Assembly: GCA_964626165.1 (NCBI GenBank)
Contig: CAZVEM010000010.1
Span: 1-30,649 of the forward strand
DNA: 30,649 bases
DNA from: an uncultured Nannocystaceae bacterium
GTDB lineage: Bacteria > Myxococcota_A > Polyangia > Nannocystales > Nannocystaceae
Reading direction: 5' to 3'
The notes below the pieces were generated by a model. It searched no databases and had not been told where the DNA came from. It worked only from the letters and a program-made list of their open reading frames with translations. Position 1 is the stretch's first letter. Each line of letters starts with the position of its first letter. Position numbers and translations under genes: made by a program. This document shows, piece after piece, positions 9,798-14,861 of this stretch.

Positions 9798-12092
9798 ATG
9801 GCCGCGAAGTATCCGCTCACAAACCTCGCCTCGTGTCCCGAACTCACCGCGGACAAGCTTCGACTTGTCTACAAGGAGATGTGTTACTCGCGGTTCCACG
9901 TCGAGCGCATCGTCCAAGAGTGCAGTAAGGGCAATGTCAAGTTCGCGATCTGGGGAGCGGGCGAAGAGCTCCACGGTGCGGCGCAAGCTCTCGCTTACGA
10001 CGGCATGGTCAACAAGGACGCCTTTGGTCTCGTCGGCCATTATCGGTCGTCTGGACTCCTCGGCACGTGGGCGCGCCTGCAGGGCTATCAGGACTTCCAC
10101 CTCGACCACATGCGCCAGCAGCTCTCGCGCAGCACCGATCCTTGGACCGGCGGTCGCCAGATGACGGCGCACTTTTGCGAGCCCAACCTGCACATTCTCC
10201 CGGTTCAAAGCGCGCTTGGCATGCAGCTTGGCAAGGCGGTCGGTTACGCACAGGGATTCAAGATCCGCGGCGTCACGGATGGCCTGGTGGTCTCGGTGAT
10301 CGGTGATGGCACCACCGCAGAAGGCGACCTGCACGATGCAATGAATGGTGGCGCGGTGCTTGAGCTGCCGCTGCTGATCGACATCACCGACAACGGCGTC
10401 GCGATCAGCGTCAAGCCGGAGGATGGCCGCGGCATCAAGGACTTCCGTCTCTACGCCAAGGCCTTTGGCTTTGAGTTCTTTGAGTGCGATGGCAACGACT
10501 TTCTCGGCGTGTACCAGACCTCACAGGCCGCGGCGCGCTACTGCATGGAGCAGCAGCGCCCGGCGATCTTCTGGATCCACTCGCTGGCGCGCCTCAACGG
10601 GCACAGCAATGCGGGCGTCTACAACTTCGACTGGGATGCGCACGACTGTCTCAACGACTTCGGCGCTGCCCTTGTCGACGCGGGCATTCTGTCGCCGGAC
10701 GAGATCGTCCGTCGCAACGACGTCACCGACGGCAAGGACTACTACCGACGTCACGACCTTGGCACGGTTGCAGCCGAATGCGACGCCTACGTCGTCAAGA
10801 CGCTTGAGATCGCGAACTCGGAGCCCGAGCCCACGGCGGAGAGCATCGAGGAGCACATCTACGCGCCGTTTCCCGAGGTCGTTGAGCCACCCAGCGAGGG
10901 ACGCCAGACCGTCATCTCGCTCAATGGCGCCATTCGGGCCGCGCTGCGCGACATCCTTGAGTCCAAGCAGATGGTGTGGCTTTACGGTCAGGACATCGCG
11001 TCGCGCGGCGGCGTGATGCAGGCGACGATGGGACTGTGGGAGCGCTTCCCGGATCGGGTTCGTGATTCACCGATCAACGAGCCGCTGATCGTCGGATCCG
11101 CGGTGGGCTTTGCGATGCACGACGGTGCGACCGCAATCCCAGAGATTCAGTTCAGCGACTACAGCCTCAACACGCTGCACTGGCTCGTCTATCTGGGCAA
11201 CCTGCGCTGGAGTTACAACGCGCGGGTCTCGGCCAACGTCATCTTGCGACTCCCCGTCGAGCCGCTGCACGGAGGCGCGGTTTATCACTCGATGTGCATG
11301 GAGGGCTTTTACGGCTCAATTCCCGGCCTTGTGATCGTGGCGCCGACGACCTCGCGCGACTTCTACGGCTTGCTGCGCACCGCAGCCGAGTACGACGGTC
11401 CCGTTCTCGTCTTTGAGTCCAAGGGCCTGTATCGATTGCCGCTGGGCGATGCGTTCCCCGGTGAGCCGACCGATCCCAAGGAGATCGCAGAGCTCAAGCG
11501 CGCGATCGGCTTCCAGGGGCTGATCCCCGACCTTCCCAAGGACTTCCGTGTGCCGCTGGGCAAGGCAGCGGTGCGTCGAGAAGGACGCGATCTTTCAATC
11601 GTGACCTGGGGTCGCACGACGATGTACTGCGCCGAGGTGGCGGAGAAGTTCGCGCAAGAGGGCATCGACGTCGAGCTCATTGACCTGCGCACGATCGTTC
11701 CGCCGGACATGGACACCGTCCTGGCCAGCGCACGCAAGACAGGTCGCTTGCTGGTGGTCCATGAGGACCGCGTATTCGCAAGCATCGGTCGCGAGATCCA
11801 AGGTGCCGTGCTCGACGCGACCCACAACGAGGGCGTCATCGTGCGCGTGCTGGGCCAAGACCCGATCCCAGGGATCCCGCAGAACGTCAACCTCGAGCAT
11901 CACATCGTGGTCACGCCGGAGAAGGTCGAGCGTGCGGCGCGAGAGCTGCTGGTGCTCCAGCACAGCGCCGCTGCCTCCGGGGCCCCGGTACGAGCATCGA
12001 CGCCCGCCGCCGGCAACGGCGAGGTCGTCACCATTCAAGAGCCTGCGCGCACGCAGGTGCTCTGGACCCCAAGCCGCTACTTCGTGACCTAG
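9798..12092 (+). CDS. Thiamine-diphosphate-dependent 2-oxoacid dehydrogenase E1 component, fused alpha/beta subunits
   Basis: The N-terminal half matches E1-alpha and has the ThDP motif GDGTTAEG...N. The C-terminal half matches E1-beta (transketolase-like Pyr plus C-terminal domains: LYGQDIASRGGVMQATMGLWERFPDRVRDSPINE...). I placed the start at ATG 9798 (MAAKYPLTN); the 77 residues upstream in the track ORF are Arg/Ser-rich junk. Confidence 0.85.
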   Translation: MAAKYPLTNLASCPELTADKLRLVYKEMCYSRFHVERIVQECSKGNVKFAIWGAGEELHGAAQALAYDGMVNKDAFGLVGHYRSSGLLGTWARLQGYQDFHLDHMRQQLSRSTDPWTGGRQMTAHFCEPNLHILPVQSALGMQLGKAVGYAQGFKIRGVTDGLVVSVIGDGTTAEGDLHDAMNGGAVLELPLLIDITDNGVAISVKPEDGRGIKDFRLYAKAFGFEFFECDGNDFLGVYQTSQAAARYCMEQQRPAIFWIHSLARLNGHSNAGVYNFDWDAHDCLNDFGAALVDAGILSPDEIVRRNDVTDGKDYYRRHDLGTVAAECDAYVVKTLEIANSEPEPTAESIEEHIYAPFPEVVEPPSEGRQTVISLNGAIRAALRDILESKQMVWLYGQDIASRGGVMQATMGLWERFPDRVRDSPINEPLIVGSAVGFAMHDGATAIPEIQFSDYSLNTLHWLVYLGNLRWSYNARVSANVILRLPVEPLHGGAVYHSMCMEGFYGSIPGLVIVAPTTSRDFYGLLRTAAEYDGPVLVFESKGLYRLPLGDAFPGEPTDPKEIAELKRAIGFQGLIPDLPKDFRVPLGKAAVRREGRDLSIVTWGRTTMYCAEVAEKFAQEGIDVELIDLRTIVPPDMDTVLASARKTGRLLVVHEDRVFASIGREIQGAVLDATHNEGVIVRVLGQDPIPGIPQNVNLEHHIVVTPEKVERAARELLVLQHSAAASGAPVRASTPAAGNGEVVTIQEPARTQVLWTPSRYFVT

Positions 12093-12094
12093 CG

Positions 12095-12113
12095 GGCTGT
12101 CGAGCACAGCCGA
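12095..12113 (+). terminator. Candidate hairpin (GGCTGT-cgagc-ACAGCC) immediately after the E1 stop codon, followed by GAATT
   Basis: Seen directly in the sequence: a 6-bp perfect stem with a 5-nt loop, in a convergent intergenic gap. There is no strong U-tract, so it is weak. Confidence 0.25.
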
Positions 12114-12191
12114 ATTGGCGGGCTGACGGACAGCTCACCAACGCGGGTGCTCTTGTCAGGTGCGCGGCAGAGCACATGCGCCGCATTCGGC

Positions 12192-13124
12192 CTATGCAGC
12201 GGTGACTCGACGTCGGCGGAGCGCGTAGCCGCCAAGGCACGCCGCCGCGAAGGCAGCCAGGCCAAGCCATCCGACGCGATTGCCATCGGGTGAGGCCGGG
12301 TCAATGTCGCAACGGCATCCACCGGTCTTGGGTGGGGCTTCGCCGCTGGTCGTGCTTGAGCCCGCTGCCTTGCCCTCGCTCTTTGGCGCACTCGTCGAGG
12401 GATCGCACCAGACCTCGTCCCAGGTACTCGCACCGCTGGTCTGACATTGGCGCTGCATGGAGGTGCCGGCAAAGCGACGCTCGCACGCGTCGCGGTCACC
12501 GTGATAGGCGTCGCCGCACGATTCGCACTTGTGGCCGGTCTCAGCCTCCTGCTTCTCCACAGTGCATTGCTCGACGTAGCCCTCCGGAGGTGGAACGTCG
12601 GCATGGGCCACGCCGGCGCCACCCCAAGTGGTGGCGAGCGCCAACACGAGGGCGGCCGTGCTGCCCATCGAGGCGCGTCGGCGTCGTCGCAGCGCGGCAC
12701 CGCTGCCAAGCACAAGACCAAGTGCCGCGAGTCCTACAAGCGCGCCATCGCCACCCGCGATCGAACAGGTCCCGGCGCTGCTCGATGAATCCACACTTGA
12801 GTTGTTGGAACTCGTCGGCATCTTCTTGGCCTCCGCCTTGGCTGCATCTTCGATCCGTTTGGCGTCCTCCTGCGCTTCCTTTTGCATCTGCTCTTTGCGG
12901 CGCTTCTGCGCTTCCTCGGTGTCGATGTCGTCGGCACGGACGAGGGCGGGCGCGACCAATATTCCGAGCGCGAGACATCCCGCTGCGAGACCCGCGATGG
13001 GTCGCGATCCGATCCAGGAAGTCGCAGCTCGCGGTTCGTGTCCGACGACGACGCTGGGGTCTAGGTCGGTCGCAACAGTGGTTGAGATGTCACTCAGAGA
13101 CAGAGCTTGACGGATGTGGAGCAT
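12192..13124 (-). CDS. Secreted MYXO-CTERM protein(s): one ORF containing two consecutive signal-peptide + MYXO-CTERM modules
   Basis: Module 1 has a signal peptide (...GLAAGCLALGILVAPALVRA), a K/E-rich helix, a Ser-rich stretch and then GTCSIAGGDGALVGLAALGLVLGSGAALRRRRR. Module 2 has a signal peptide (MGSTAALVLALATTWGGAGVAHA), an 8-Cys region and then GGCRCDIDP...GWLGLAAFAAACLGGYALRRRR. I checked codon by codon that there is no stop between RRRRRAS and MGST. Confidence 0.55.
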   Translation of the reverse strand: MLHIRQALSLSDISTTVATDLDPSVVVGHEPRAATSWIGSRPIAGLAAGCLALGILVAPALVRADDIDTEEAQKRRKEQMQKEAQEDAKRIEDAAKAEAKKMPTSSNNSSVDSSSSAGTCSIAGGDGALVGLAALGLVLGSGAALRRRRRASMGSTAALVLALATTWGGAGVAHADVPPPEGYVEQCTVEKQEAETGHKCESCGDAYHGDRDACERRFAGTSMQRQCQTSGASTWDEVWCDPSTSAPKSEGKAAGSSTTSGEAPPKTGGCRCDIDPASPDGNRVGWLGLAAFAAACLGGYALRRRRVTAA

Positions 13125-13259
13125 CGGGCCTGCTTTCGCGGCATCGAGGGTAGCACTCCGCGCCGCAAGACCCTAGCTGACGACTTGCGCTTGGCCGCAG
13201 CGCTTAGGGACTGCCGCTGAAGGGGCTTCCCTCAAAGGATGCGAGTGAGAGGCTGCGAG

Positions 13260-13631
13260 TCAGAGGCCAAGACTGGGTGCGAACGCGCGGAGGGCCTGCC
13301 CAACGGCGACGCTCGATGCGTTCGCGAACAGAGCCCACAACAGTGGATCGCGGAGACCCGTCAAGCTCAGCCAGAGTGCCTCGACGGTGATCGCGAAAAT
13401 CTCTGCGACCAGAACGATGACGAGCCACGGCGCTGGAACCACGAAGGGAAAGACAAACCAGACGACGGGATGCGTCAGAGCGCTTGCCAGTACCGCCCAC
13501 ATGATCGCCTTCCACCACGGAAGCGGTTCATCAACAAAGCTACCTCGCAACGCGGCGACGTAGATCGGTGCCTCGACCAGCGAGGTCAGGGCGAAGGCGC
13601 CAATCCAGGTCGAGAGCGCGGCGGTCAGCAT
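13260..13631 (-). CDS. Small integral membrane protein (about 124 aa, 3-4 TM)
   Basis: I placed the start at ATG 13631 (MLTAALSTWIGAFALTSL...), which overlaps the upstream gene's stop by 7 nt (ATGcTGA). The track ORF extends to 13781, but that part is Arg/Pro-rich. Confidence 0.45.
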   Translation of the reverse strand: MLTAALSTWIGAFALTSLVEAPIYVAALRGSFVDEPLPWWKAIMWAVLASALTHPVVWFVFPFVVPAPWLVIVLVAEIFAITVEALWLSLTGLRDPLLWALFANASSVAVGQALRAFAPSLGL

Positions 13632-14737
13632 CGCGCCTCGTCGCCTCCCCGGTCGTGGTCGCGCCGAGACCTCGCGGACCGATCCGAGCCTGGGTTGGTG
13701 TCGCGCTGGCGCGCTGGGCTCCCATGCCTTGTGCTCGCTGTCACCGGGCGGCCCACCGCGATCATCATCGCCAGTGCGCACAGCTCAAGTGAGCCGTGGA
13801 ACCGCGCGAACTGAAGATATCCGGTGCGGGCATCGACGGTGTCCACCAGGCCGGCCCAGAGAGCGACCAAGAGCGCGAGTGCAGCCGAGCAAATCAGCAC
13901 CGGCCAGCCGAGATCATCGACGAGTGCGTGCAACGACGCCCGGAATGTTCGGGGTGTCGGCTGGGCACGGTCGTCCTCGCGGATCAAGCTCAGCCACATT
14001 GTGTAATGCACGCTTTGCAGGAAGCAAAACAACAGCACGAGCCGCAGTCCAAGCTGGTCCACGGGCAGGCCGGCATACCATTGGCTCAAGCGCGCGGGAC
14101 CGGAGACTGAGACCGCCGAGAGCGTGTGGCCGCTGAGAATGTCGACCTGCGTTTCGATCTCAAGCGGCACCGGCGTGCGGGTTGCAAGCGTGACGACGTC
14201 GACGGGGAGCAAGACGAGTAGCGCGATGCCGCCGACAATCATCAGCAATACAAGGTAGTGCCAACGTTCACTGCGTGGTCGCCACATCCACCAGAGCGCA
14301 ACCGCGAGGATGTTGTGCAGGTGCGCCATGACCAAACCGGTTGGCCGCGGGAAGGCGAACGCCACCACGCACAGCGAAATCGTCAGCAAGACCGCGAGCA
14401 TCTGGATCCACCGCAACGAACGCCCCTCCCGCTCCCAGCCGACCAGCAGGACGAACAGCGCGCCGAGGAAGCCAAAGCCGACCATACCGAGCACGCCCGC
14501 AAGCGCGACAGCGATCGCAGCGGGCACCAGGACGTGCCTGCGCGCCAGCAGGCCGTTGCGCACCACGCCGTAGCGGACGTCGGCGACGAGATGGGGGACA
14601 CCGAGCAGGAGCGGTCCGAGAATCAGCAACCAAGCCGGTACCGTGAGCGTGCCAAGCAACGCCAAGGTCACGGCCGCCACCCCCAAGACACCGACCCGTA
14701 GCTCGCGGTCACCCGCGAGCAAACCGCTCCAGGGCAT
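13625..14737 (-). CDS. Polytopic membrane protein of unknown function (about 8-10 TM, His residues in several TM segments)
   Basis: The long hydrophobic ORF is 13625..14875; the start is ambiguous (GTG 14875 or ATG 14737, MPWSGLL). Segments such as GVPHLVAD and LFCFLQSVHY only loosely resemble Brp/Blh-family motifs, and the His spacing is not conserved, so I make no functional call. It is co-directional with and overlaps the downstream small membrane gene. Confidence 0.5.
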   Translation of the reverse strand: MPWSGLLAGDRELRVGVLGVAAVTLALLGTLTVPAWLLILGPLLLGVPHLVADVRYGVVRNGLLARRHVLVPAAIAVALAGVLGMVGFGFLGALFVLLVGWEREGRSLRWIQMLAVLLTISLCVVAFAFPRPTGLVMAHLHNILAVALWWMWRPRSERWHYLVLLMIVGGIALLVLLPVDVVTLATRTPVPLEIETQVDILSGHTLSAVSVSGPARLSQWYAGLPVDQLGLRLVLLFCFLQSVHYTMWLSLIREDDRAQPTPRTFRASLHALVDDLGWPVLICSAALALLVALWAGLVDTVDARTGYLQFARFHGSLELCALAMMIAVGRPVTASTRHGSPARQRDTNPGSDRSARSRRDHDRGGDEARC

Positions 14738-14861
14738 CGTGCGCTTGAGAACGCGGGCACGCGCGCGATCGAGCAGACCCAGAGGGCGATCGAGCCAAGG
14801 TTGCGTGCCGGCGTGGAGCACCAGGTGGTACTCTGCCTCAGGCTTTGCCACGGCGTCGAGT

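Follow-up and report, generated by a model that had tools for sequence, protein, structure and literature searches.

Two signal peptide and MYXO-CTERM modules in one stop-free reading frame of an uncultured Nannocystaceae bacterium, a candidate in-frame gene fusion

An open reading frame (ORF) of an uncultured Nannocystaceae bacterium (assembly GCA_964626165.1, contig CAZVEM010000010.1) encodes two successive modules, each with a putative signal peptide and a tail of the MYXO-CTERM type, a C-terminal sorting tag. We analysed this ORF in a window of 30,649 nucleotides, positions 1 to 30,649 of the contig, with a G+C content of 65%. An earlier note on this DNA had described the ORF as uninterrupted, and this is borne out by the translation, which contains all of the peptide strings quoted in that note (Table 1). 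The identical 310-aa product (P0001) is already annotated in the NCBI record, on a contig of 45,255 bp, with M1 as its start, though shorter-than-maximal starts were chosen there for two neighbouring genes. Module 1 comprises residues 1-152 and module 2 residues 153-310, and they join as RRRRR-A-S-M in the DNA context ...CGA CGA CGC CGA CGC GCC TCG ATG GGC..., with the codon TCG (12669-12671) standing where a stop is expected. By codon usage, the frame of the ORF is the best-scoring of the six throughout, and the plus-strand ORFs at 12290..13153 and 12628..13110 were rejected as Arg-rich junk translations with poor codon scores.

Both tails share the tripartite build of Cys motif, hydrophobic helix and Arg cluster known from the MYXO-CTERM (TIGR03901)/myxosortase MrtX pathway (PMC11980579; bioRxiv 10.1101/2023.06.07.544157). 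Tail 1 reads GTC(120)SIAGGDGALVGLAALGLVLGSGAALRRRRR(150) and tail 2 reads GGC(270)RC...WLGLAAFAAACLGGYALRRRR(306)VTAA. The Cys motif ahead of the helix is present in each (GTC120S and GGC270RC272), and the tail Cys is kept in at least 90% of sequences in our alignment of the module-2 family (alignment A1). Kyte-Doolittle hydropathy gives hydrophobic windows at 121-146 (peak 2.03) and 283-302 (peak 1.85), each helix being followed by its Arg cluster (the second at 303-306). An AlphaFold (AF2) model of the ORF shows tail 2 as a helix over residues 281-309, while tail 1 is modelled at low confidence. As in other MYXO-CTERM proteins, each tail follows a low-complexity linker and a putative Sec-type signal peptide, and the host is a myxobacterium; unlike in those proteins, the first of the tails is internal and both score just under the model cutoff.

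On the NCBIfam MYXO-CTERM model TIGR03901, tail 1 scores 16.3 bits over positions 5-34 of 34 and tail 2 scores 16.2 bits over positions 2-34. A family-tail profile built from the C-terminal tails of 104 module-2 relatives gave 26.0 bits for tail 1 and 21.4 bits for tail 2, against a maximum of 12.7 bits in a null made of the six-frame translation of reversed DNA (the window and all fetched Nannocystaceae loci; 698,000 residues). In the real translations of 475 kb, seven tails reach at least 15 bits and for six of these a stop follows after 0-16 residues, in agreement with the premise of the earlier note that such a tag should end a protein. The seventh is tail 1, the sole internal one, at 159 residues from the stop, so that the extreme C-terminal location holds for tail 2 and fails for tail 1. 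Tail 1 is not a chance match: since it stands far above the null and is the only internal tail among the seven, it is a real feature that is exceptional in its position.

Table 1. Positions of the two-module ORF and of its parts in the window
Feature	Position	Strand	Basis
310-codon ORF, both modules inside	12192..13124	minus	ATG 13122-13124, stop TAG 12192-12194; no internal stops
Residues 1-42, long N-terminal stretch ahead of the first hydrophobic core	12999..13124	minus	Codon-usage score ~0, coding status uncertain
Residues 43-64, first signal-peptide-like core and LVRA|DD (putative signal peptidase I site)	12933..12998	minus	Hydropathy peak 2.46
Residues 65-120, predicted mature module 1: K/E/Q-rich helix 69-100, Ser-rich linker to Cys120	12765..12932	minus	AF2, codon usage
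Residues 118-150, tail 1 (internal): Cys120 motif, helix 127-145, RRRRR 146-150	12675..12773	minus	TIGR03901, family-tail profile
In-frame GTG (Val138), alternative internal start that would supply module 2 with an Arg-rich n-region	12711..12713	minus	Start-codon list
Junction GCC TCG ATG, Ala151-Ser152-Met153	12666..12674	minus	Read directly from the sequence
Residues 153-175, second signal peptide MGSTAALVLALATTWGGAGVAHA, predicted cut before D	12600..12668	minus	Alignment A1; A175 and D176 invariant
Residues 176-242, conserved 'DVPPPxGYVExCT' domain with six conserved Cys	12399..12599	minus	HMMER search, alignment A1
Residues 243-267, low-complexity S/T/A/P/G linker	12324..12398	minus	Variable length in alignment A1, pLDDT about 51-56
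Residues 268-306, tail 2 (terminal): GGCRC, helix 284-301, RRRR; 4 residues before stop	12207..12323	minus	TIGR03901, family-tail profile

Judged by sequence comparison, module 2 is complete and belongs to a large family of Myxococcota proteins that are free-standing and 130-220 aa in length. A HMMER search, exhaustive over 1.84 billion representatives of 50% identity clusters, returned at least 417 representatives of the family at E<=1e-3 and 155 at E<=1e-10, with a best E of 6e-32. Among the best 150 of the 417, the 149 proteins other than the query all align to residues ~146-308 only, and nearly all of these alignments begin within the first 5-20 residues of the matched protein. The relatives (e.g. 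P0003, P0005, P0006 and P0008) match module 2 end-to-end at 30-46% identity in alignment A1, from signal peptide and A|D site through the six Cys to linker and tail, with M153 aligned to their start Met, and the A-D-[VILM]-x-P motif at the predicted cleavage site (AHA|DVPPP in our ORF) has a median position of 23 in the relatives versus 175 here. In each of three relatives with readable contigs the module-2 gene stands alone, its upstream neighbour being an unrelated outer-membrane-barrel gene in one case and a divergently transcribed gene in the other two. The suggestion that the modules might be two genes elsewhere is thus upheld for module 2, from the alignments and these three neighbourhoods. 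No internal tail was found in any other of 152 family proteins. The ORF differs from its free-standing six-Cys relatives in the 152 extra codons of an unrelated module that precede the Met, and in a signal peptide with no K/R of its own, whereas 107 of 117 family signal peptides (91%) have K/R.

The Cys-rich domain that the earlier note had placed in module 2 is present, with six conserved Cys and not eight. Cys 187, 203, 214, 227 and 240 are invariant and C200 occurs in at least 90% of sequences, whereas C270 and C272 form the tail motif and C296 lies within the tail helix, and none of these three is counted in the domain. The predicted local distance difference test score (pLDDT) is mostly about 80-95 over this domain, which is modelled as a compact alpha/beta fold at ~189-245, with both linkers of the ORF disordered. 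We found no Pfam or NCBIfam model for the domain and, with Foldseek, no fold match in the PDB at E<=0.001. The 'ADVPPPxGYVExCT' six-Cys family is large and uncurated, and its domain has a confident AlphaFold model yet no counterpart in those collections. One further member, P0093 (254 aa), has a DoxX-like multi-span membrane N-terminus followed, with no stop between, by the signal peptide of a relative of module 2; such a run-on is a second fusion in the same family or else an artefact of the start call.

Module 1 is an orphan in the searches made here and looks coding, the support from codon usage being moderate. Its ATG is the only in-frame start upstream of the first hydrophobic segment, and so the only one to give the module a signal peptide. 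That putative signal peptide, as judged by hydropathy and by eye, has an unusually long n-region of 42 residues, then a hydrophobic core and VRA|D, where the -3/-1 residues V/A resemble the ARA|D site of the module-2 family in the alignment. A lipoprotein signal at Cys50 was considered and rejected: LAAGC50 lies beyond the required 15-35, R41 falls within the required uncharged stretch, the hydrophobic core runs on for 12 residues past Cys50, and the lipobox rule [LVI][ASTVI][GAS]C fails. The charged helix that follows has a pLDDT of 94-97 in the AlphaFold model, for which relatives were aligned to the second half of the ORF. Codon-usage log-odds, trained on confident genes of the window, are 0.21 for residues 40-152 and 0.41 for residues 64-117, the best stretch of the ORF, compared with 0.15 for module 2; the averages are 0.30 +/- 0.21 for windows of genes read in frame and -0.35 for off-frame windows.

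The two modules resemble one another only in their linker-plus-tail regions (30% over 84 aligned columns), and there is no DNA repeat between them. A recent tandem duplication was rejected on these grounds, and the description of the modules in the earlier note as tandem paralogs does not hold, module 1 being also without a Cys domain.

We give about an even chance to the reading that the ORF is a genuine in-frame, stop-less fusion of two real genes, formerly separate, adjacent and co-directional, and that the fusion is probably tolerated. Each ancestral gene would have encoded a small, Sec-exported surface protein anchored by a MYXO-CTERM tail, the upstream product beginning with a signal peptide and a charged helix of 32 residues and ending, after a Ser-rich linker, in a tail of Cys, transmembrane segment and Arg5. 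The stop of the first gene would then have been lost in a single step, with translation running on through the start Met of the gene behind it. This may have happened by TAG to TCG in a TAG-ATG abutment, or by one C inserted into a GCC-TGATG-GGC stop/start overlap, a change that would have removed the stop and brought the second gene into frame together; origin by single-step stop loss is what the junction sequence leads us to infer. A frameshift that conceals a stop was rejected, since in neither of the other minus-strand frames does a stop lie close to the junction (the next are at 12541 and 12089), and only events at the junction itself could therefore have made the fusion. That Met153 is kept at the start position of the family suggests either a recent event or continued internal initiation, and module 2 may also start internally at ATG153. 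Neither ATG153 nor GTG138 is preceded by a Shine-Dalgarno-like motif. A Tat signal for module 2 starting from GTG138 was considered and rejected, as there is no RRxFLK-like motif and the relatives have short Sec signal peptides.

A single base change or a 1-nt indel is also all that a sequencing or assembly error would require, with a true genome that has a stop (TAG for TCG) or one base fewer (TGATG) at 12669-12671. In that case the modules would be ordinary neighbouring genes coupled in translation, tail 1 would end in ...RRRRRA, a typical MYXO-CTERM ending, and an error would account for an internal tail that is unique both among the seven strong tails and among the 152 family proteins. It is also relevant that the GTDB species-representative set does not include this genome, which was sampled once. 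Speaking against an error, the junction is not a homopolymer, and the conserved genes of the window (E1, FTHFS, MenB and MVP-like) are neither frameshifted nor shortened and match profiles or orthologues over their full length, so that no general frameshift or indel problem is visible. We also reason a priori, and not from a measurement, that real lineage-specific mutations outnumber consensus errors per codon. On balance we consider such an error unlikely.

Several observations weigh against a genuine fusion. Both tails lie under the curated 20-bit cutoff of TIGR03901, though undoubted family relatives score 14.3-21.1 bits on the same model, which makes this cutoff strict for the subfamily. 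The signal peptides and cleavage sites are putative, having been assigned from hydropathy, alignment and inspection by eye. The codon score of module 1 is reached by ~4% of all off-frame windows and by ~15% of the stop-free ones, and its first ~40 codons (residues 1-39) look non-coding, with a score of ~0. No homologue of module 1 is among the matches listed in the exhaustive HMMER search; six peptide patterns searched in metagenomes gave 600 pattern matches, of which 0 were confirmed. Two word-index searches with module 1 also returned nothing, but they missed the identical region of P0001 itself, and are thus weak negatives, untrustworthy for low-complexity queries.

The genomic context adds to these points. 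The ORF is flanked by a convergent plus-strand gene for a fused E1 alpha/beta dehydrogenase (9798-12092), the nearest relatives of which, at 61-74% identity, are in Nannocystaceae metagenome-assembled genomes and in Enhygromyxa, Plesiocystis, Nannocystis and Paraliomyxa. In 37 related Nannocystaceae genomes neither module was found beside the E1 gene, which leaves a single occurrence, and the alignment to orthologous loci proposed in the earlier note found no orthologous locus among these relatives. The sole marginal match in the 37 loci (L003, E=0.07) is in an unrelated 361-aa Cys-rich protein. Five neighbour proteins that were checked are singletons at 90% identity, on one contig, among ~15 billion proteins. 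Searches for exact copies of the whole ORF, of module 2 begun at M153 or V138, and of module 1 cut off at A151 or S152 found nothing further, and a DNA pattern for the junction that allowed a variable codon or an indel had no match in metagenomes. The collections searched thus contain no independent assembly that covers the junction, and the organism has been sampled once in public data.

The absence of module 1 homologues and the codon score of residues 1-39 would also fit an over-extended ORF, in which only module 2 works, from ATG153 or GTG138, and module 1 is what remains, untranslated, of a decayed upstream gene that chances to stay open in the frame. Overlong N-terminal extensions are common in this GC-rich family (P0072, P0093, P0027 and P0002), M153 sits exactly at the family start position, and the start region at ATG 13124 has neither a convincing Shine-Dalgarno sequence nor a sigma-70-like promoter, a promoter and terminator scan of 12000-13400 having given nothing above the shuffled-sequence background. 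Stop-loss fusions and over-extended ORFs in GC-rich genomes are likewise a matter of one nucleotide, and relatives show spurious N-terminal extensions; unlike in a typical over-extended ORF, however, the upstream part here is a complete, recognisable module and not junk. From residue 40 on, the codon usage of module 1 equals or exceeds that of module 2, a confident amphipathic K/E helix and a full tail are intact, and there is no stop in 152 codons, a length that we calculate from base composition to stay open by chance in ~2% of cases at 65% GC. The second signal peptide, moreover, lacks the K/R found in most of the family, a charge which the upstream RRRRR would supply. We hold over-extension to be unlikely.

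If the fusion is genuine and translated whole, its four hydrophobic segments (H1 43-62, H2 127-145, H3 157-171 and H4 284-301) and its Arg clusters make up a predicted in-out-in-out-in topology that is self-consistent. The H2-H3 loop (RRRRRASMGST) carries charges of +5/0 and the segment after H4 +4/0, whereas the two long loops, the predicted ectodomains, are net acidic, in agreement with the positive-inside rule. Signal peptide 1 would cross outward and tail helix 1 inward as a stop transfer, leaving the RRRRR loop in the cytoplasm; H3 would then re-start export as an internal signal peptide, and tail helix 2 would cross inward with its RRRR cytoplasmic. With no K/R in signal peptide 2, the upstream Arg cluster could act as its n-region.

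In the published model of the MYXO-CTERM pathway, Sec export is followed by anchoring through the tag helix with a cytoplasmic Arg cluster, lipidation of the Cys and cleavage by MrtX, a CPBP protease (PMC11980579). MrtX also removes MYXO-CTERM tails that bear an added C-terminal FLAG (PMC11980579), so that the pathway does not require a native free C-terminus directly behind the Arg cluster. By this model, signal peptidase I would cut the fused chain after VRA64 and AHA175, and the lipidation/myxosortase pathway would cut after Cys120 and Cys270/272. The products, D65-C120 and D176 to C270 or C272, would be the same as those of the unfused genes, with a discarded helical-hairpin peptide of ~55 residues as a by-product. 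The correct alternation of the four segments is the probable reason why a fused precursor would be tolerated, and the coherence of the topology suggests that signal peptidase I and myxosortase could still free both products. That the ORF is in fact translated as one chain, a bacterial membrane 'polyprotein' yielding two separately lipid-anchored surface proteins, seems to us possible though somewhat doubtful.

The closest working analogy is with viral membrane glycoproteins: in polyproteins such as flavivirus prM-E and bunyavirus Gn-Gc, a transmembrane anchor precedes an internal signal sequence at which the signal peptidase of the host cuts (see also PMC6756788 and PMC6784171). The ORF would follow the same logic, with an anchor helix, a basic cytoplasmic loop, an internal signal peptide and a next ectodomain. 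The likeness is one of analogy without homology: here the host is bacterial, and an intramembrane CPBP protease would make the first cut once lipidation had taken place, as proposed from sequence.

The same coherent topology, and the apparent reliance of signal peptide 2 on the upstream Arg cluster for a positive n-region, could also be taken as signs of an evolved two-in-one precursor, in which fusion was selected for fixed 1:1 surface delivery of a helical peptide and a Cys-rich protein and the hairpin of tail 1 and signal peptide 2 is a dedicated processing cassette. This hairpin (residues 125-172; 12609-12752, minus strand) has a weak match to NCBIfam NF058595, titled 'lipo-invert putative C-terminal anchoring domain', at 17.2 bits, which is sub-threshold against a cutoff of 37; a literature search turned up no paper using the term 'lipo-invert'. 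The architecture is unconserved, however, being the only one of its kind among the 152 family representatives and absent at the locus in the 37 related genomes, and the start Met kept at 153 suggests a recent event. We regard selection for such a precursor as very unlikely. With no conservation anywhere, the fusion is probably a lineage-specific accident, tolerated rather than designed, and the oddity is a single, unconserved instance assembled from known parts.

Should the junction be real and the chain processed, the ORF would serve as a natural experiment for the MYXO-CTERM/myxosortase pathway. One implication would be that the sorting tag can function from an internal position and is not bound to the C-terminus, and another that a tag helix and a signal peptide can together make a cleavable hairpin, as in viral glycoprotein polyproteins, which could guide multi-cargo surface-display constructs in myxobacteria. 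If the junction proves to be an error or a dead relic, the lesson is one of care in annotation, as the longest ORF in a GC-rich genome can conceal two genes. Such hidden gene pairs would be picked out by a simple screen for sorting tags that lie inside an ORF with a signal peptide behind them.

Elsewhere in the window, a 562-aa protein (14643-16331, plus strand) combines a bacterial Ig-like Big_5 domain with a MYXO-CTERM tail of 20.7 bits, above the curated cutoff, which indicates that the host uses the MYXO-CTERM sorting system. No CPBP/myxosortase gene was found among the window ORFs scanned, a result that covers the window only, and the window has no Rfam families. Upstream of the ORF by 135 bp and on the same strand lie two polytopic membrane ORFs (13260-13631 and 13625-14875, both minus), both without a match in Pfam or NCBIfam; the shorter, of 123 aa, carries an NCBI annotation. 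Two further ORFs match domains of eukaryotic or eukaryote-type proteins. The first (19426-22221, plus strand; 931 aa) matches the eukaryotic Major Vault Protein shoulder domain PF11978 at 66 bits and the vault repeat PF17795 at 31.7 bits and has no NCBIfam model; a literature search turned up no paper pairing 'major vault protein' with 'myxobacteria'. The second (22303-22857, minus strand) carries a eukaryote-type RNA recognition motif, RRM_1, at 64.6 bits, and adjoins the formate-tetrahydrofolate ligase gene.

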